A stretch of DNA of 64,000 nt from Patescibacteria group bacterium (GTDB taxonomy: Bacteria > Patescibacteriota > Patescibacteriia > SG8-24). This document shows positions 24,101 to 61,714 of the stretch, piece after piece. Location: NCBI GenBank assembly GCA_041667185.1, contig JBAYFM010000007.1, positions 4,296-68,295 on the forward strand, in the 5' to 3' direction. The stretch's first letter is position 1; the number at the start of each line of letters is the position of its first letter. The position numbers and the translations under genes were made by a program. Below the pieces are notes generated by a model. That model saw only the letters and a list, made by a program, of their open reading frames with translations. It was not told the origin of the DNA and made no database searches.

Positions 24101-25085
24101 GGAAGAAACCGACAGCGCTGTCAGTCAGCCGTACCACGCGATCAAGAACGAACTCATAAAGTTCCTGATCCGACATCTTGGCCGCCCGGCCGTAAACATC
24201 GAGGAGGAAAGACTCCCGCTCCGCCTCCTTGATCAAAACAAGTTCAGCCGTCCGCTGCGCCGTGATATCCTGGATCATCGTCAGGAAATAAAGCGGCTGG
24301 CCGGAAGCGTCGCGAATAAGGTTGACGTGGGTTGAAGCCCAGATTTCCTGACCCGACTTGGTCAAATAACGTTTGACCGTGTTGTACTCCCGTAACGTCC
24401 CCTTGAGGAGATCGCCGATACCCTGGCGATTAGCGGCAATATGATCGGGATGCGTGATATCCGCGTACGTCAGTTTCAACAGTTCCGACTCGGAGCGGCC
24501 GACGATCTCGCAGAACTTCCGGTTGACGCGAATGAATTTAAAATCCAGTCCGGACAGCACGATACCGACAGTAGCCTCTTCGAAGATGCGGCGAAATCTC
24601 TCCTCGCTCGATCGCAGATTTTCCTCGATTCGCTGGCGTTCAGTGATGTCGCGCGGCACGAAACGAATCATCTTCCGACCGCATTCGTCGTAGACATTAG
24701 CATCGACTTCAACCGGAATAAGCTCTCCTTTGTGGGTCTTGAGGCTTCGAGCAGCCTGGTGCAATACTCCCTCGCGGATAAAATCGGCGAATTCCGCCTT
24801 ATCAGCGAACAAGGTGCGGAGACAACACTGTTTGTCCCAAAGACTACGGCCCACGGCATCTTTTCGCTGGCAACCGGACATTTTTTCAAAACTGACGTTG
24901 ATATCCTCAATCCGCGCCGTGTCTGCATCAACGATCGCGATGCCAGACTGAGCGGTATTAAAAACTAACCGATACCGATCAGCACACTCGGCCAACAAAC
25001 CCGTAGCGGCGGATTGCGCATGATTGACCGCCGCTGTTGTCGTTTTATTTTCCGGGGCGCCGTTGCGCTTGAATAGGGACAACAT
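21108..25085 (-). CDS. Cytoplasmic multi-PAS sensor histidine kinase (1325 aa), no receiver domain
   Basis: At least 6 PAS-like repeats, H-box (QVVSQQMRTPLSSVRW), HATPase_c (DTGIGIP...GSGIGLHIAKSVIEAHGGK...GSTFWFELP). Confidence 0.85.
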   Translation of the reverse strand: MLSLFKRNGAPENKTTTAAVNHAQSAATGLLAECADRYRLVFNTAQSGIAIVDADTARIEDINVSFEKMSGCQRKDAVGRSLWDKQCCLRTLFADKAEFADFIREGVLHQAARSLKTHKGELIPVEVDANVYDECGRKMIRFVPRDITERQRIEENLRSSEERFRRIFEEATVGIVLSGLDFKFIRVNRKFCEIVGRSESELLKLTYADITHPDHIAANRQGIGDLLKGTLREYNTVKRYLTKSGQEIWASTHVNLIRDASGQPLYFLTMIQDITAQRTAELVLIKEAERESFLLDVYGRAAKMSDQELYEFVLDRVVRLTDSAVGFFHLVIDGQKEIILNTWNKEALKSCRAPDVGHRPIESAGNWMDAMRQKKPVIYNDFAASPNRKGFPSGHVELKRLMSVPTFENESFRILFGVGNKQKPYNERDIAQVQLVAATLFKIIRQRQVEKDLRESEMAYRQVFEGSQEAFILLDGMTIVDCNDATLKMFGTTERTQIIGRRPDEISPLQQPSGQDSQTAAREAVDRALKLKFFRFEWMHRRMGGQDFLAEVTLSSFEVHGRFRCHAFLRDLSEREQQAKMFMQAFNTAPLMMTLATVDGGEFIEVNEAFTRITGYSRDEVLGQTEVKLGIVSAEDRQRVVETLRISGRAHGMDTVIWQKGGSRRICRLTTEPVTVGERRLLLTIAEDVTDQQESEAEVKRVHEQIRRSEADLRQAQKFAKIGSWRWHVQADKLEWSDEMYRIFGIDKAKFTGRLTDVMTAAIHPDDRMRVEVANRSVIEKAQPMPMEYRIVHPDGAVFTVWAEAFEFIRDAAGKISVLSGIVQDITDRRRVEHKFTEARQRFVELFNSLPVCIYRNTPGPKGSFIEVNPAMVAMFEADSKEELLKISVSDLYVDPADRLLISEKIKKLGFVKSEVVRLKTLKGRKIWGAVTAVLKKNEIDKEYFDGVIEDVTARVEAESALRASEEKYRNFIENTQDIIYAADPSGVLTYISPQVSMYGYKESDLIGRSFTEFVSAEFFFEEDLERARVNWSEFMKTGVFKPFSLRFRRRDGQFVWVEASGSHYKNSDNKLAGTIGVVRNIHERKVAEEHAYELDTIKNKFVQVVSQQMRTPLSSVRWGLEQVLSDKMGPLTGSQRQILRMSLEANKEAVGRIADLLLVMDIEAGRLRLEPEKIILEDLVRSVCANNKQKFELKKITHEHTYSDDQISTVNVDQEKFRDLFGRLLDNAISYTPEGGRITTRIKKEQKTVRVEVTDTGIGIPTGEQEQLFRRFHRFSNAAIIKPEGSGIGLHIAKSVIEAHGGKMGYESQEGKGSTFWFELPLAG

Positions 25086-25321
25086 ATTTGGACTGTCTGA
25101 CCGATCTTTATTTTATAATTATATCAATAAATCACCGCCTTGGACAGTTCAAAAACGGCGTTATTCGGACCAAATGCCGCACGCCGGCGGTCCGAGCGCC
25201 GAGCTCTCAATTCGGCGTAAAAAGGCGGCGGATCAGTCGGCGACCGCCGAGGTGTTGATTATTTCAGCGGCGCTTGCTAAGCTCGGCTGTTCTTTGAAAA
25301 TCCAGCGACAGGAGCGTGCTC

Positions 25322-25585
25322 ATGAACCGACAGCGGACTTATAAGCTCCAAAAAGACGGCCGCACGATCTCGAGCCGGCAACCGTGGCGCTACGCCGGCT
25401 GGAGGTTGGGCAAGATCTTCGGCCGGCTGGACTGCGCTTCAGGCCGACGGATGAAGCCGGAGAACCGCGTCTTTTTTCTCACTTGGGACGATGCTATCGC
25501 CGCCGGCTACCGGCCATGCAAGAACTGCCGGCCGACGCCGTCGGATCGTTACACAACCCCTAACCGAAAAACGAGGCCGCGATGA
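25322..25585 (+). CDS. Ada-like Zn-ribbon (Ada_Zn_binding-type) small protein lacking the methyl-acceptor Cys
   Basis: AAGYRPCKNCRP aligns with Ada N-domain FRPCKRCQP; first Cys of the CRPSC pair is Gly here; RBS AGGAG 7 nt upstream; stop overlaps next start (ATGA). Confidence 0.6.
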   Translation: MNRQRTYKLQKDGRTISSRQPWRYAGWRLGKIFGRLDCASGRRMKPENRVFFLTWDDAIAAGYRPCKNCRPTPSDRYTTPNRKTRPR

Positions 25586-26466
25586 CAAAAATGTTCAGTT
25601 TGCGTTTCGATCCCGATCTCTGGCAGCTCGAACAGCGACAACCAGTCAACACGCTGCAAATGTTCATCACGGCCGCCTGCGACCGCCGCTGTCCGGAATG
25701 TTTCTTCCGACAGCACTTCAACGCCGGAGCGATGACCCTGGATTTCTACCGCCGGACGGTCGAGCAATATCGCCCATCCATCGGCAAGGTCATCATCCTG
25801 GGCGGCGAACCGACGCTACATCGCGACCTGCCGGCCATGCTCGCATTCAACCGCGACCTCGGCCTGCCGACCACGCTCTACACCAACGGCCGACGGCTGA
25901 TGGCGCTCGCGCCGAAAGATCTGGCCGGCGTTTCGGTCAGGCTGTCAGTCGACGGCCTGACCGGCGGACTCAAGCCGGCGCTGGCCCTGCCGAAACTCGG
26001 ACCAGTGATCATGCCGGTCTTCATGACGAGCCGGAATAACACCGGCGACTTGCTGCCGTTCCTGGACCACGTCGAGCGCTCCCTCGGCTGCACCGAGGCG
26101 TTCATCTCGAGCATCCGTGACATCCAAGAAAGCAGCGATTTCTGGCTGGATACGTCGACGACCCTGCCTCTTCGCGATTATGCGGCGACCGTCCAACGGA
26201 CGATCGACGCTTACCGCGGACGGCTGACCTTGCATATCTCCCGGCGCGGCGTGATCGCTGCCGGCGGCCCGCGCCGAACGGCCGAACCGCCTAACCGCTG
26301 CCGCTTCGGCAACGTCCTGCCCGACGGACGGCTCATCACTTGTCCGTTCGACATCTGCAAAAACCGCGTCACGGACGGTCTGCGCTTCGGCGAACAACGC
26401 TGCGAAAAGACGAGGGGCGGCGGCTGTCTGCTGCAGAAACTCGTCCTGCGACGAAAACCGACATGA
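25582..26466 (+). CDS. Radical SAM protein (CxxxCxxC) with Cys-rich C-terminal extension
   Basis: CDRRCPECFFRQHF cluster, glycine-rich GGEPTL SAM motif, C-terminal 6-Cys region (CRFG...CPFDIC...C...C). Confidence 0.75.
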   Translation: MTKMFSLRFDPDLWQLEQRQPVNTLQMFITAACDRRCPECFFRQHFNAGAMTLDFYRRTVEQYRPSIGKVIILGGEPTLHRDLPAMLAFNRDLGLPTTLYTNGRRLMALAPKDLAGVSVRLSVDGLTGGLKPALALPKLGPVIMPVFMTSRNNTGDLLPFLDHVERSLGCTEAFISSIRDIQESSDFWLDTSTTLPLRDYAATVQRTIDAYRGRLTLHISRRGVIAAGGPRRTAEPPNRCRFGNVLPDGRLITCPFDICKNRVTDGLRFGEQRCEKTRGGGCLLQKLVLRRKPT

Positions 26467-26473
26467 TCACAAA

Positions 26474-26506
26474 CCCCGCCGGCGACTGCCGACGGGGATT
26501 TTTTTA
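26474..26506 (+). terminator. Intrinsic terminator after the radical SAM gene
   Basis: CCCCG-N14-CGGGG + ATTTTTTT. Confidence 0.55.
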
Positions 26507-26573: not shown

Positions 26574-27335
26574 TCAAAACTTGATGTCGTTCGCGACGGT
26601 CGACGTCGCCTGGAAACCGCGGACATTCAGGAGCATGTCGCCGGGAAACTGGCTGGAGTGATACAAGCAGTAGGTCACGGACGTGCCCCACTTGGCGTTG
26701 AGCGCGTCCATGAGCGCCGTCATTTTCTTCAAATCAACCTCGGTGGCGTGAATGCCACCCAGGTCGAAGTCGAGTTCGTCGTCATCCTGGGCGATAAGCA
26801 TGGCCGACAGCACGCCGTGAAGTTTGAAAGGGAATTTCAATCCTTCGACCACCTCTTTGACGAACGGCTCGTAACGGAAAGGCCGCTCGCGATCGAATTC
26901 CGGATGAAAAACCAACGCGATCGCCTGAGGTTTCACAGCCGGACGACTATTCTGCGGCGGAGCATAAAGATCGTCGCCGCGAACTTCGAGTTCAACCGTG
27001 CTGACGGCCTTTTTGGCCGGACCACTGATCGCTTCGCCAGTCTCCGCCTTGAATTCGGAGCCGTGCCAGGGACAAACGACGATCCCATCCTTGACCACGC
27101 CCTTGCACAACGGGCCGCCCAAGTGGGTACAAGCGTTATCGAGGGCGAAAAAACGATCGCCCGAACGCACGATGGATATTTTCCTGCCGCCGATCGCGGC
27201 GCAATACGACTTATCGGCGGCGATATCCTTGACCGCGGCCACGCGCACAGGCTCGCTGGCGGCGCAATCGCAACCTCCGCCCGGACAAACCCAGGCCTGA
27301 AACATCTTCTTGAGTGGGTTGCGAACCATAAACAA
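26574..27335 (-). CDS. Rieske [2Fe-2S] domain protein fused to an uncharacterised C-terminal domain
   Basis: CTHLGGPL...CPWHGSEF (CxH...CxxH) Rieske motifs in the N-terminal half; C-terminal ~130 aa unassigned. Confidence 0.7.
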   Translation of the reverse strand: MFMVRNPLKKMFQAWVCPGGGCDCAASEPVRVAAVKDIAADKSYCAAIGGRKISIVRSGDRFFALDNACTHLGGPLCKGVVKDGIVVCPWHGSEFKAETGEAISGPAKKAVSTVELEVRGDDLYAPPQNSRPAVKPQAIALVFHPEFDRERPFRYEPFVKEVVEGLKFPFKLHGVLSAMLIAQDDDELDFDLGGIHATEVDLKKMTALMDALNAKWGTSVTYCLYHSSQFPGDMLLNVRGFQATSTVANDIKF

Positions 27336-27489: not shown

Positions 27490-28266
27490 ATGACCAACCC
27501 TCAAAGATCGACGTTCCCTGAATCGCTGAGCAAACTTTTGAAACATTCCCTGCTCGACCGAGAAGAGGAGCTTCGACTCATCCGCCGGGCCCAGCAAGGC
27601 GACCGCCAGGCGCTCGATTCGCTCGTGCACCACAACCTCAAATTAGTGATGCGCGTGGCCGGGCGCTATGCCCGACGCTACGCCGACTACAACGTCGAAC
27701 TGCAAGACTTGTTCAGCGAAGGTGTGATCGGTCTGCACAAGGCCATCATGAAATTCGATGCCGCTCGCGGCGCGAATCTGAACACCTACGCCGACTACTG
27801 GATAAAACAAGTGATCGGCCGCTATCTGGCGAACCAGCGCTACCTGATCCGCGTGCCGATCAACGCTCAGCAGAACCTGCGGGATGAGGAGGCGGGAAAC
27901 GGCAAAAAAGGTCTCACTAAAACCGACCTCCGCAACTTCTCTGCCGTCTCGCTCGACCAGGAAATTTCCTCCAACGACGCCGGCAACCAAAACGGCTGCA
28001 CGCTCGCCGATATCTGCGTAGACGGACGTGAAACGACGTCATCGGAAACCGCTGTCGCGCGCTCCGAAGTTGCAGCCATCCTCGCCGAAGCATTCGGCCA
28101 GCTCACGCCACGAGAACAGGACATCATCAAAAAACGTTTTTGTGATGAACTGTCCCAGAACCAGGTCTCGGATATCTGCGGCCTGACGCGCATGCGCGTC
28201 CGCTGGATCGAAGCCAAGGCGCTCGGCAAACTCCGGTGCCTGCTCCAAGACAAGGACATCTTCTGA
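27490..28266 (+). CDS. Sigma-70 family RNA polymerase sigma factor (group 3-like, 258 aa), paralog 1
   Basis: Region 2 (DLFSEGVIGLHKAIMKFD...TYADYWIKQVIGRYL) and region 4.2 (VRWIEAKALGKLR). Confidence 0.85.
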   Translation: MTNPQRSTFPESLSKLLKHSLLDREEELRLIRRAQQGDRQALDSLVHHNLKLVMRVAGRYARRYADYNVELQDLFSEGVIGLHKAIMKFDAARGANLNTYADYWIKQVIGRYLANQRYLIRVPINAQQNLRDEEAGNGKKGLTKTDLRNFSAVSLDQEISSNDAGNQNGCTLADICVDGRETTSSETAVARSEVAAILAEAFGQLTPREQDIIKKRFCDELSQNQVSDICGLTRMRVRWIEAKALGKLRCLLQDKDIF

Positions 28267-28548: not shown

Positions 28549-29316
28549 ATGACCGATCATCAAGGATCGCCGATCTCTGAATCGCTGAGCAAATTATTGC
28601 GTCATTCCATGCTCGATCGGGAAGAGGAACTCCGACTCATCGGCCGGTCTCAGCAAGGCGACCGCCAGGCCCTCGACTCGCTCGTGCGCCACAATCTCAA
28701 GTTCGTGATGAGCATCGCCAAGCGCTATGCCGGCCGCGGCGTCGAACTCGAGGATCTGTTCAGCGAAGGCGCCATCGGCCTGCAGATAGCCATCAAGAAA
28801 TTCGACGTCACGAGCGGTAATCGGCTCAGCACCTACGCCATCTGGTGGATCCGGCAGCTGATCGCCCGCTACCTGGATGATCATTGCCGCACGATCCGCG
28901 TACCGATCAGAGTCCAAAAGAACCTGCGCGACGAGGAATCGGCAGAAGAAAACGACAACCGCCTCACCAAGGCCGGCCTCGACAACTTCTCGCCCGTCTC
29001 GCTCGACCAGGAACTGTCGTCCGGCGACGATTCCAACCAGAACGGATGCACGCTCGCCGATACCTGCGCGGACGAATGCAAAACAGCGTCGCCAGAAACA
29101 GCCGTCGCTCGCGCCGAGGTCTCGGACATCATCACTGAGGCGATCAGCCAGCTCACGCCCCGAGAACAATACGTCATCGTAAAACGTTTTCGCGAAGAGC
29201 TGACCCTGCGCAATATCGCCGGAACCCACACTCTGTCACGCGAGCGCATTCGCCAGATCGAAGCCAAGGCGCTCGGCAAACTCCGGCGTCTGCTCCAAAA
29301 CAAGGACATCTTCTGA
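28549..29316 (+). CDS. Sigma-70 family sigma factor, paralog 2 (255 aa)
   Basis: Collinear with paralog 1 (about 65% identical by eye); region 4.2 RIRQIEAKALGKLR. Confidence 0.85.
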   Translation: MTDHQGSPISESLSKLLRHSMLDREEELRLIGRSQQGDRQALDSLVRHNLKFVMSIAKRYAGRGVELEDLFSEGAIGLQIAIKKFDVTSGNRLSTYAIWWIRQLIARYLDDHCRTIRVPIRVQKNLRDEESAEENDNRLTKAGLDNFSPVSLDQELSSGDDSNQNGCTLADTCADECKTASPETAVARAEVSDIITEAISQLTPREQYVIVKRFREELTLRNIAGTHTLSRERIRQIEAKALGKLRRLLQNKDIF

Positions 29317-29439: not shown

Positions 29440-29491
29440 ATACGGTCCCGCCAGTAACGGGATGAAGCTCTTTTCCAACCAGGAGATCATC

Positions 29492-29824
29492 ATGTCCAAT
29501 CACGAACAAGAAATGCTTGAGGTTTCGTTCGACGACAACACCTACCAGCTCGAATGCGCGCTCGCCGATACCGGCGCGGACGAACGCTACGCCGCGTCGT
29601 CGCCCGAAACCGCCGTCGCCCGCTCTGAAGCTGAGGTCATCGTCACCAAGGCGCTCAACAGACTCACGCCTCGGGAACAGAGCATCATCGTCAAGCGCTT
29701 CTGGGGCGACCTGGACCAGCGCGAGATCTCCAAGATCTACGGCATGACGTACGCAAACATCGACAAGATCGAAGCCCAGGCGTTCGACAAACTCCGTCAG
29801 CATCTTTCGAGAGACCTCTTCTGA
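29492..29824 (+). CDS. Sigma-70 region-4-only paralog (110 aa): decayed third copy, pseudogene or sigma-region-4 mimic
   Basis: Retains only SPETAVARSE...LTPREQSIIVKRF...IDKIEAQAFDKLR (region 4); intact RBS AGGAG and same promoter/terminator design as paralogs 1-2. Confidence 0.55.
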   Translation: MSNHEQEMLEVSFDDNTYQLECALADTGADERYAASSPETAVARSEAEVIVTKALNRLTPREQSIIVKRFWGDLDQREISKIYGMTYANIDKIEAQAFDKLRQHLSRDLF

Positions 29825-58608: not shown

Positions 58609-59703
<1,095 letters not shown>

Positions 59704-59990: not shown

Positions 59991-60554
59991 TTATTTGGCA
60001 CGCTCGACGTACTCACCGTTCTCGGTGTTCACGACCACGAACTCGTCCTGCTGGACGAACAGCGGCACCTGAATCTTCATCCCGGTCTCCAGCGTCGCTT
60101 CCTTGGTCACGCGGCCGGAAGCCGTATCGCCTTTGACGGCCGGCATGGACTCGACCACTTTGAAAGTCAGTTTCTTCGGCAGATCAACGGACAGCGGCAG
60201 ACCCTGATAAAGCAGGACGCTGACCTCCTGCCCCTCTTTCAGATACTGCCCTTTCTCGGACAGAAGCTCGGCCGAGATTGCCTGCTGTTCGAAACTGGCG
60301 TTGTCCATGAAATAATAATTGTTGGCGTCCTTGTACAGATACTGCATCGTCGCCCGGTCGAGCTCGACGACCTCCACGGATTCGCTGACCTTGAAGGTGT
60401 TCTCCATCGTCTTGCCGGTCTGCACGTTCTTCAGTTTGGCGCGCACGAAAGCACTGCCCTTGCCGGGGTTGACGTGCTGGGCGTCGGTGACGACGTGCAC
60501 GGCGTCCTTGAACATGATGAAAGTCTCCTTCTTGAGCGCTGTAGTGTCAGCCAT
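59991..60554 (-). CDS. efp: Translation elongation factor P (Lys34-type, KPGKG loop)
   Basis: VNPGKGSAFVRAKLKNVQTGK loop with the conserved modifiable Lys; collinear with EF-P. Confidence 0.9.
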   Translation of the reverse strand: MADTTALKKETFIMFKDAVHVVTDAQHVNPGKGSAFVRAKLKNVQTGKTMENTFKVSESVEVVELDRATMQYLYKDANNYYFMDNASFEQQAISAELLSEKGQYLKEGQEVSVLLYQGLPLSVDLPKKLTFKVVESMPAVKGDTASGRVTKEATLETGMKIQVPLFVQQDEFVVVNTENGEYVERAK

Positions 60555-60605: not shown

Positions 60606-61676
60606 CTAATTTCCGAACAGGTCGGAGGCGGGAAAAAAGAGGACGTCTCGGATATCCTTGGCGTCCGTGAGCAACATTACCAGACGATCAAGGCCAAAAG
60701 CAATACCCGCGCTGGGCGGCATCCGCCCGACCGCCTCCAGGAACTGTTCATCGAGCTCCAGGACCGGCTTGCCGAGCTGGCGCCGCAATTCCTGCTCTTC
60801 GACCAGGCGTTGCCGCTGTTCAGCGGCGTCATTCAATTCCGAAAAGGCGTTACCGAGCTCGATGCCGAGGCAGTAAGCCTCGAAACGCTCGGCGTAGCGT
60901 CCATCGCCGGGTTTCAGGCGGGCCAGCGCGGCCATGGAACGCGGATAGTCGTATAGGATGACCGGTTTGGCTGTCGCGCCGGGCGTCTCCGGCTGCCCCA
61001 GTTTCGGTTCGATGTCCCGCAAAAACAATTTGAAGAAAACATCATCGAACGTATCGGTCCCGTCGATGGTGCAGCCGCGACCGGCGACTTCGCTCCGGAA
61101 CCACTCCGGATCATCAATGCCTCGCCCCAGATCCAGGGAACAATAATGGTCAAAAGCCTCGGCTACGGAAAGCCTGGTCCAGGCCGGAGCCAGCTCCACG
61201 ACCTGTCCCTGATAGTTCAACGCGGTCTGACCGACGACCTTGAGCGCCGCCTCGGCGACCAATTCCTCGGTGTCGCGCATGAGCGCGCGGTAATCGTCAT
61301 GAGCGCGATACCACTCGATCAGGCTGAACTCGGGATTGTGCGTGCCACCCCAGGGTTCGCCGTTCCGGAACGACCGGGTGATCTCGAAGATCTTCGGCAG
61401 GCCGGCCGCGAGCAATTTCTTGAGCGAGTACTCCGGCGACGTGATCAGATAACCGGCCCGCGTACCGCCGCGCTCGTCGGCGAGTCCGGTCGCGAACGGT
61501 TCCAGGTGCGGCTCCATGCCGGGATGCGCCACCAGGATCGGCGTCTCGACCTCGAGAAAACCGCGGCTGGCGAAAAAATCACGCACCGCTTTCATGATGG
61601 CGGAACGCTGAAGCATCCGACCGCGGTAAACCGCGTCCGAGCCGAGACGCCGCCAGTTTGGAGTTGAGGTGGTCAT
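60606..61676 (-). CDS. epmA: EF-P-(R)-beta-lysine ligase EpmA (PoxA/GenX; LysRS class II catalytic-domain paralog)
   Basis: RSAIMKAVRDFFASRGFLEVETP aligns with E. coli EpmA [23 protein letters not shown]; class II motifs; no anticodon-binding domain; adjacent to efp. ATG at 61676 with GGAG RBS (listed ORF starts at an upstream TTG). Confidence 0.8.
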   Translation of the reverse strand: MTTSTPNWRRLGSDAVYRGRMLQRSAIMKAVRDFFASRGFLEVETPILVAHPGMEPHLEPFATGLADERGGTRAGYLITSPEYSLKKLLAAGLPKIFEITRSFRNGEPWGGTHNPEFSLIEWYRAHDDYRALMRDTEELVAEAALKVVGQTALNYQGQVVELAPAWTRLSVAEAFDHYCSLDLGRGIDDPEWFRSEVAGRGCTIDGTDTFDDVFFKLFLRDIEPKLGQPETPGATAKPVILYDYPRSMAALARLKPGDGRYAERFEAYCLGIELGNAFSELNDAAEQRQRLVEEQELRRQLGKPVLELDEQFLEAVGRMPPSAGIAFGLDRLVMLLTDAKDIRDVLFFPASDLFGN

Positions 61677-61686
61677 GGTTCTCCAC

Positions 61687-61714
61687 AAAACCCCGTCCGA
61701 TTGGACGGGGTTTT
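61687..61714 (-). terminator. Hairpin plus U-tract between rpsR and epmA (CCCCGTCCAATCGGACGGGG + TTTTG), ending 14 nt before the epmA start
   Basis: Perfect 8-bp GC stem; T-tract runs into the epmA RBS. Confidence 0.55.

Follow-up and report, generated by a model that had tools for sequence, protein, structure and literature searches.

An Ada-like zinc-domain gene and a radical-SAM gene share a transcription unit in a Patescibacteria group bacterium: probably two independent families rather than a dedicated system

Two open reading frames (ORFs) on the plus strand of a 64,000-nt stretch of DNA from a Patescibacteria group bacterium (assembly GCA_041667185.1, contig JBAYFM010000007.1; the whole stretch is referred to below as the window) form the subject of this analysis, the first (25322-25585) encoding a small protein that resembles the N-terminal zinc domain of Escherichia coli Ada (N-Ada) and the second (25582-26466) encoding a radical S-adenosylmethionine (SAM) protein. 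The 87-aa product of the first gene was assigned as a stand-alone Ada N-terminal-like zinc-domain protein by its match to Pfam PF02805 and its alignment with the N-Ada structure 1ADN, and the 294-aa product of the second was placed in an unnamed twitch-like family on the basis of Pfam PF04055, a family alignment and an AlphaFold2 (AF2) model. A Shine-Dalgarno motif (AGGAG, 25310..25314, +), read from the sequence, lies 7 nt upstream of the Ada-like ATG, and the two genes share an ATGA start/stop overlap at 25582..25585 (+), composed of the Ada-like TGA (25583-25585) and the radical-SAM ATG (25582-25584), as had been remarked in an earlier sequence-only reading of the locus. A GAGG motif is located 5 nt upstream of this overlap, within the end of the Ada-like gene. 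Downstream, an intrinsic terminator (26474..26505, +), consisting of a GC-rich hairpin (26474-26497) followed by U7, was predicted with a folding energy (dG) of -17.9 kcal/mol and a z-score of -2.5; it is shared with a convergent Rieske-type gene (26574-27335, -), and the scan flags a minus-strand reading of it as well. Given this shared layout of ribosome-binding site, ATGA overlap and terminator, the two genes are judged from the sequence to be one compact, translationally coupled transcription unit.

Upstream of the unit lies a divergent intergenic region of 236 nt and, beyond it, a gene on the opposite strand for a 1325-aa PAS histidine kinase. The intergenic region contains a sigma-70-like promoter candidate (TTGACC, 16 nt, TATTTT; 25024..25051, +), which matches 9 of 12 positions and, with one site found against 0.5 expected, constitutes weak evidence. 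Searching the 5' region for a riboswitch or leader RNA gave no Rfam match at E<=1. Recent horizontal transfer of the two genes was considered and rejected: a sliding-window plot displays a local GC rise over the radical-SAM gene, but this rise is not supported by the per-gene values, as the GC content (0.61-0.63) and the GC content at third codon positions (0.74-0.78) of both genes fall within the range of the other genes of the window.

The Ada-like protein matched PF02805 (Ada_Zn_binding) with 43.9 bits (gathering cut-off 23; E 2.3e-11), and the radical-SAM protein matched PF04055 (Radical_SAM) with 41.4 bits (cut-off 29.5), both domain calls of the sequence-only reading being upheld with scores above the cut-offs. 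The match to E. coli N-Ada (N-Ada10/N-Ada16; structures 1ADN, 1EYF and 1U8B) is significant over the core of the domain, phmmer aligning residues 28-74 of the window protein with residues 32-77 of 1ADN (E 1.3e-5). This alignment pairs 'ifGrldC' with 'IFCRPSC', which places Gly34 at the position of the nucleophilic Cys38 of Ada, as had been proposed, and C38, C66 and C69 at the positions of the Ada zinc ligands C42, C69 and C72. The codons of this FGRLDC motif, G34-R-L-D-C38, are located at 25421..25435 (+) and correspond to C38-R-P-S-C42 of Ada. In common with N-Ada, the window protein has the G[YF]RPCxxC helix and, of the first cysteine pair, the second member, and it retains three of the four zinc ligands of Ada (C38, C42, C69 and C72), Gly34 replacing C38; unlike N-Ada, it combines an invariant glycine at this position and three cysteine ligands with no conserved fourth Cys or His. 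Additionally, it differs from full-length E. coli Ada in standing alone, without the helix-turn-helix (HTH) domain HTH_AraC and without the O6-methylguanine methyltransferase (MGMT) domain.

Cys38 of Ada is reportedly (He et al. 2005) the acceptor of the methyl group from methylphosphotriesters, and N-Ada is said to be a sequence-specific DNA-binding domain. Because glycine occupies this acceptor position and three zinc cysteines are left, the Ada-like protein is predicted to be unable to take a methyl group there. An ECOD paper (PMC12353581) names Cys69 as the methyl acceptor of Ada, and the counterpart of Cys69 is retained in the window protein. The non-catalytic DNA-binding role suggested in the sequence-only reading is plausible. 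By homology to N-Ada and from the repair operons described below, the protein is most likely a small accessory factor that binds DNA or senses lesions. The public record of an identical protein (P0096) bears the label 'Ada metal-binding domain-containing protein [Patescibacteria group bacterium]', and that of an identical radical-SAM protein reads 'radical SAM protein [Patescibacteria group bacterium]'.

The radical-SAM protein carries the [4Fe-4S] cluster motif C33-x3-C37-x2-C40 (codons at 25678..25701, +), GGE at residues 74-76 and six further cysteines (170, 240, 254, 259, 274 and 282). In an alignment of 52 family members, C33/C37/C40, G74-G75-E76, R120, R222, R241, K286 and C240/C254/C274/C282 are invariant, while C170 is present in 43 and C259 in 7 of the 52 sequences; the extra cysteines pointed out in the sequence-only reading are thus present, four of the six being invariant in the family. 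These four make up a C-terminal module, C240-x8-G-x4-C254 and C274-x7-C282 (26299..26427, +), whose first two cysteines frame the consensus CRFGN[IV][FL]PDGxKIIC, equivalent to CX8GX4C. Twitch and SPASM domains open with a CX9-15GX4C hairpin, from which the corresponding motif of the window protein is one residue short, and this motif is followed by the invariant C274 and C282. The seven-cysteine SPASM motif with its two auxiliary clusters (PF13186/TIGR04085) is not matched by the four conserved C-terminal cysteines, PF13186 gave no match at E<=1, and no SPASM model was present among the best 25 of the 31 NCBIfam hits at E<=1, to which all NCBIfam results for this protein refer. Among those hits no model came near its cut-off, the best being viperin, TrsS, NrdG and MoaA, matched over residues ~20-125, i.e. 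the cluster-binding core.

The AF2 model of the radical-SAM protein (predicted local distance difference test score, pLDDT, 91) displays a partial TIM-barrel fold and was matched by Foldseek to radical-SAM structures at probability 1.00. Its best neighbours in the Protein Data Bank (PDB) are SuiB, PqqE, SkfB, BlsE, GDGT-MAS, DesII, MoaA and the viperins, with template-modelling (TM) scores of 0.5-0.6 and 12-21% identity. Twitch/SPASM enzymes (BtrN, MoaA, SkfB, BlsE, SuiB and PqqE) have CX3CX2C, GGE and the partial TIM-barrel in common with the window protein, whose Cys-rich C-terminal extension begins with a putative CxxG...DGxxxxC beta-hairpin, and they head the Foldseek results (E 5e-9 to 1e-6) as well as the profile matches in the PDB. 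They differ from it at these modest levels of structural and sequence similarity, in its own cysteine spacing (C-x13-C-x19-C-x7-C) and its unmatched SPASM model, and in that it has neither an RRE (RiPP recognition element) domain nor a recurrent substrate gene. The four-cysteine module is presumed to be most likely a twitch-like auxiliary [4Fe-4S] site, with a structural Zn(Cys)4 site as the clearly less probable alternative. When the last 70 residues were searched as a profile, the PDB yielded only a weak match to the CHHC zinc finger of GTSF1 (E 0.014 for the whole protein, not significant per domain). The CPFD...C segment encoded at 26299-26427 (residues 240-282) weakly resembles CHHC RNA-binding zinc fingers of the U11-48K/GTSF1 type; the His positions of this finger are not conserved in the radical-SAM protein.

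Viperin and its prokaryotic counterpart pVip supplied the best-scoring named models in both NCBIfam (E 1.7e-7) and PADLOC (E 1.2e-11), and they are similar in size to the window protein, which has nucleotide-metabolism genes among its family's neighbours. However, NF038283 reached 30.7 bits where its cut-off is 180 and covered residues 26-116 only, and the PADLOC pVip match covered residues 25-124 only; viperins are not known to have a C-terminal four-cysteine module. An identity as viperin, NrdG, MoaA or QueE was rejected, the matches being confined to the N-terminal core and far below the cut-offs. As regards anti-phage defence, PADLOC returned only partial pVip matches for the radical-SAM protein and a weak PDC-S40 match (E 1e-5) for the Ada-like protein. 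A PHROGs search retrieved nothing specific, and a fold search of BFVD retrieved generic phage radical-SAM proteins only (TM about 0.5).

To establish whether the two genes are associated elsewhere, hidden Markov models (HMMs) of both families were run against the six-frame ORFs of all fetched loci. Including the window, 81 loci carried an Ada-like ORF and 76 a member of the radical-SAM family, and both genes were present in the window only: the adjacency was found in 0 of the 80 other Ada-like loci and in 0 of the 75 other radical-SAM loci. The flanks covered at least 900 nt downstream in 70 of the 80 Ada-like loci and at least 300 nt upstream in 68 of the 75 radical-SAM loci; truncated loci therefore do not explain the missing pair. 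Furthermore, the radical-SAM HMM also detects generic radical-SAM cores, and none was encountered within 4 kb of any of the 80 other Ada-like genes. The meaningful pairing entertained in the sequence-only reading, for which non-conservation of the two ORFs as a pair had been named as the refutation, is not borne out by these counts.

For the Ada-like protein, 90 relatives of 70-100 aa and 50-74% identity were retrieved from the protein database, mostly from Patescibacteria lineages (Kaiserbacteria, Paceibacterota, Falkowbacteria and Spechtbacterales), and in an alignment of 31 members Gly34, C38, C66 and C69 are invariant, with no further conserved Cys or His. A scan of one genome per species identified at least 554 Ada-like loci in taxa including DPANN archaea, Melainabacteria, Nocardia, Streptomyces, Acinetobacter, Marinobacter and Bacteroidota; the scan pattern required Gly, and these loci are accordingly selected for this residue, as is the set in which a regular-expression check found Gly at the Cys38 position in 77 of 81 loci. 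The Cys38-to-Gly exchange is evidently not peculiar to the window.

The gene context of the Ada-like family was examined in the fetched loci. In Acinetobacter colistiniresistens (locus L071, 2358-4790) the order of Pfam domains is HTH_AraC+MGMT, the PF09859 2-oxoglutarate (2OG) oxygenase 'Oxygenase-NA', the Ada-like protein and an AlkB-type 2OG oxygenase, the AraC-MGMT protein of this operon having no zinc domain of its own. ORF clustering showed that the HTH_AraC+MGMT and PF09859 neighbours recur in 20-21 Acinetobacter, Nocardia and Bacteroidota loci (within L052-L089), and in these aerobes the family is part of what is apparently a split adaptive-response (alkylation-repair) operon. The small protein encoded there belongs to the same family as that of the window, with the motif [FY]GRL[DT]C...G[YF]RPCxxC, and its gene is flanked by AraC-MGMT, the PF09859 oxygenase and AlkB, whereas in the window the small gene is situated between the PAS histidine kinase and the radical-SAM gene with no adjoining alkylation-repair gene. 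The 41 Ada-like loci of Patescibacteria/DPANN type (L010-L050) displayed no recurrent neighbour, their surroundings being unrelated housekeeping genes, and the nearest relative (P0097, 74% identity) is followed by unrelated ORFs.

The radical-SAM family comprises approximately 90 full-length relatives of 280-300 aa and 35-47% identity to the window protein, those with a taxonomic label deriving mostly from Nano-, Pace- and Woesearchaeota, with one from Chloroflexi. When the family profile was compared with 1.84 billion cluster representatives, 60 matched at E<=1e-30, after which the scores dropped abruptly to generic matches with radical-SAM cores in unrelated long proteins; the family thus amounts to some 60 clusters at 50% identity, distributed over DPANN archaea, huge phages and a few bacteria. 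Full-length members numbering 17 are located on IMG/VR viral contigs. Large viral contigs with members include L092/L179 (435 kb), L101 (461 kb), L093 (229 kb), L095 (164 kb), L105 (128 kb) and L091 (114 kb). By neighbour joining, the window protein is placed with that of a phage-like contig (L001), with the Chloroflexi member and a viral member nearby, and this group falls outside both a large DPANN-looking clade of metagenomic sequences and metagenome-assembled genomes and a separate, all-viral clade (L093-L106). The phage-like contig L001 also carries genes for dCMP deaminase, a helicase, a phosphoribosyltransferase, dUTPase/DCD, an ATP-grasp protein and DnaB.

No recurrent partner of the radical-SAM gene emerged when ORFs were clustered and 106 immediate neighbours were scanned with Pfam, apart from a TrmBL2-like protein of ~278 aa that is encoded divergently from it in 14 of 66 loci, all DPANN-looking (e.g. 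L150, 5049-5885, -, and L005, 5047-5883, -). This neighbour has no Pfam domain, its labelled relatives (55-94% identity) come from Pacearchaeota, Nanoarchaeota and unclassified archaea, and its AF2 model (pLDDT 80), which comprises a winged HTH and a PLD-like C-terminal domain, matches the archaeal chromatin/transcription protein TrmBL2 (Foldseek 5BPD, E 7e-9). The adjacency is most likely a matter of lineage synteny and indicates regulation at best. Similarly, ZPR1 adjoins the radical-SAM gene in five loci, which looks like lineage synteny in loci of DPANN type. Scattered neighbours, met once each except for MazG (two loci), include nicotinate phosphoribosyltransferase (NAPRTase), SIR2, NADAR, ADP-ribosylglycohydrolase, an AAA_28 kinase-like protein, dGTP diphosphohydrolase, dCMP deaminase and HAD phosphatases; as a group, they hint at a leaning towards the metabolism of nucleotides and nicotinamide adenine dinucleotide (NAD). 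A near relative (P0006, 45% identity; L231, 2143-4878) is monocistronic among bacterial housekeeping genes. In this single instance, the gene is divergent from one for a PHP-domain DNA polymerase of the PolX type. Longer members of the family carry no extra Pfam domain, and no fusion was found among them. In the literature neither family was found to be described, nor was their pairing, the ECOD note on ADA_N-like domains (PMC12353581) being the only related item.

Taken together, these observations favour, with a probability of roughly 0.75, an ordinary two-gene unit of two functionally independent genes over a dedicated two-component system. Their juxtaposition is most likely a matter of chance and specific to this lineage, and the ATGA overlap would reflect gene packing and co-expression rather than a conserved partnership. 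The first gene belongs to a large family whose members, of 70-100 aa, stand alone, have an Ada-N-like zinc domain and always carry glycine at the Cys38 position, and its product most likely acts as a small accessory in DNA binding or lesion sensing. In the product of the second gene, the CX3CX2C-bound [4Fe-4S] cluster would, following the chemistry of the superfamily, cleave SAM reductively to a 5'-deoxyadenosyl radical, which would abstract a hydrogen atom from the substrate, while the C-terminal four-cysteine module would most likely carry an auxiliary Fe-S cluster for positioning or oxidising the substrate, comparable with those of BtrN, MoaA, BlsE and SkfB. Our best guess, held with low confidence, is that the substrate may be small and anionic, of the kind represented by nucleotides, NAD or sugar phosphates, because many Arg and Lys residues are invariant and because nucleotide- and NAD-metabolism genes are scattered among the neighbours.

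Several points weigh against this interpretation. The genes are coupled by ATGA and have one promoter region and one terminator, and they are certainly co-expressed here; such co-expression leaves room for a functional link confined to this lineage, which would be invisible to comparative data. Both families are, moreover, enriched in Patescibacteria and DPANN alike. In aerobes the Ada-like family adjoins oxidative DNA-dealkylating enzymes, and the presence of a radical-SAM protein in the corresponding place might not be coincidence alone in an organism presumed to be anaerobic. As regards the proposed chemistry, the auxiliary Fe-S cluster is read from the cysteine pattern only, with the SPASM HMM unmatched, and the CHHC similarity (E 0.014) permits a structural zinc.

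Where a functional link between the two genes is considered, a regulatory one retains a small chance: the Ada-like protein would be a small DNA-binding transcription factor that autoregulates the operon and controls expression of the radical-SAM gene, with no catalytic part of its own. The reported sequence-specific DNA binding of N-Ada, the position of the Ada-like gene as the first of the operon and the divergence of DPANN-type radical-SAM genes from the TrmBL2-like DNA-binding protein (14 of 66 loci) are in keeping with such a function. However, the small protein resides elsewhere in unrelated, non-recurrent contexts that misfit a dedicated regulator, N-Ada alone needs an adjacent HTH domain for transcription activation, and no operator-like repeat was seen, although no search for one was made. 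It is improbable, to a slightly greater degree, that the Ada-like module captures DNA, or a lesion in its backbone or bases, and passes it on to the radical-SAM protein for radical repair or modification, as an oxygen-independent counterpart of the operons that combine the Ada-like gene with AlkB/2OG-oxygenase genes. Such joint action would suit the ATGA coupling within a single transcription unit, the location of the Acinetobacter Gly-variant protein between the PF09859 oxygenase and AlkB, the same oxygenase and MGMT neighbours obtained by ORF clustering in the Nocardia and Bacteroidota loci, and the near radical-SAM relative that is divergent from PolX; spore photoproduct lyase is a precedent for radical-SAM DNA repair. 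Against it stand the absence of a radical-SAM gene within 4 kb in the 80 Ada-like loci and of an Ada-like ORF in the 75 radical-SAM loci, the occurrence of the radical-SAM family mostly alone or in phage nucleotide-metabolism modules, and the lack of any two-domain fusion among family members. Its more specific form, in which the Cys38-less module would recognise alkylated DNA and the twitch-type enzyme would remove or rework the lesion by oxygen-independent dealkylation, is suggested by analogy because the small-protein family adjoins AlkB-type oxygenases in aerobes, and it is less probable again.

A third kind of link, regarded as very improbable, would make the radical-SAM protein a maturase of the type that acts on ribosomally synthesised and post-translationally modified peptides (RiPPs), with the Cys-bearing small protein upstream, or another short neighbour, as its peptide or protein substrate. 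Its top structural matches SuiB, PqqE and SkfB are indeed peptide-modifying SPASM/twitch enzymes, a small ORF followed by a radical-SAM gene resembles precursor-maturase pairs, and short unannotated ORFs lie beside many family members; yet the upstream protein is a folded, conserved domain with 60-74% identity across phyla, its family occupies at least 554 loci without any radical-SAM gene, no recurrent RRE domain, peptidase or transporter is found nearby, and clustering does not bring the small neighbours of different members together. Hardly credible is the proposal that the radical-SAM protein is a divergent lysine 2,3-aminomutase (EpmB), making the beta-lysine used by the EpmA whose gene lies 34 kb downstream. 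The window does contain efp (59991-60554, -) and epmA (60606-61688, -; TIGR00462 334 bits, cut-off 287), confirming that both are present without an adjacent epmB, no KamA/EpmB-type gene was detected in its 64 kb, and the radical-SAM gene is the only ORF of at least 150 aa with CX3CX2C therein. An aromatic residue follows CX3CX2C as in KamA/EpmB, and the CxxxCxxCF.R.HF likeness to EpmB that had been drawn holds for this single sequence ('FFRQHF'), but it is superficial and no trait of the family, whose consensus is CNLRCxGCFYxHxLG and which is centred on DPANN archaea and phages. Furthermore, no KamA/EpmB model was among the best 25 of the 31 NCBIfam hits, the family profile met lysine 2,3-aminomutase (2A5H) over residues 25-81 only, i.e. 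the cluster loop (E 0.026), no KamA was among the Foldseek matches of the model, and the 294-aa protein has its four-cysteine tail in place of a C-terminal part that binds pyridoxal phosphate. In view of the missing family HMM match, the loop-only similarity, the other fold extension and the other phyletic distribution, the KamA/EpmB identity that the sequence-only reading had not excluded was rejected.

Beyond the two genes, a number of features of the window were recorded. The adjacent efp and epmA genes have recA (58609-59703, +) immediately upstream. Downstream of the unit, two tandem paralogous genes of the sigma-70 family (27490-28266 and 28549-29316, +) have near-identical N-terminal regions, and a shorter ORF (29462-29824, +) resembles the C-terminal part only of these paralogues; among the NCBIfam matches of the first sigma gene (27490-28266) are RpoS and MzaA, an anti-phage sigma factor of MZA (E 2.9e-35, well short of its cut-off). 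The window has a GC content of 58% and encodes, besides the 1325-aa multi-PAS histidine kinase, a 2052-aa ORF, a weak RodZ-like match, EpmA and several sigma factors, its proteins being labelled 'Patescibacteria group bacterium' in public records. Such GC and gene content is unusual for genomes of the candidate phyla radiation, and the bin assignment may deserve a check.

As a one-off adjacency, the pair itself matters little and is not to be catalogued as a system; the interest rests on the two families and not on their pairing. The radical-SAM proteins constitute a small, clean and uncharacterised family, of the sort that often yields new radical chemistry or virus-host nucleotide warfare. 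The Ada-like family with its Cys38-to-Gly exchange is widespread, and the role of an Ada domain devoid of its methyl acceptor would be testable in cultivable Acinetobacter and Nocardia.

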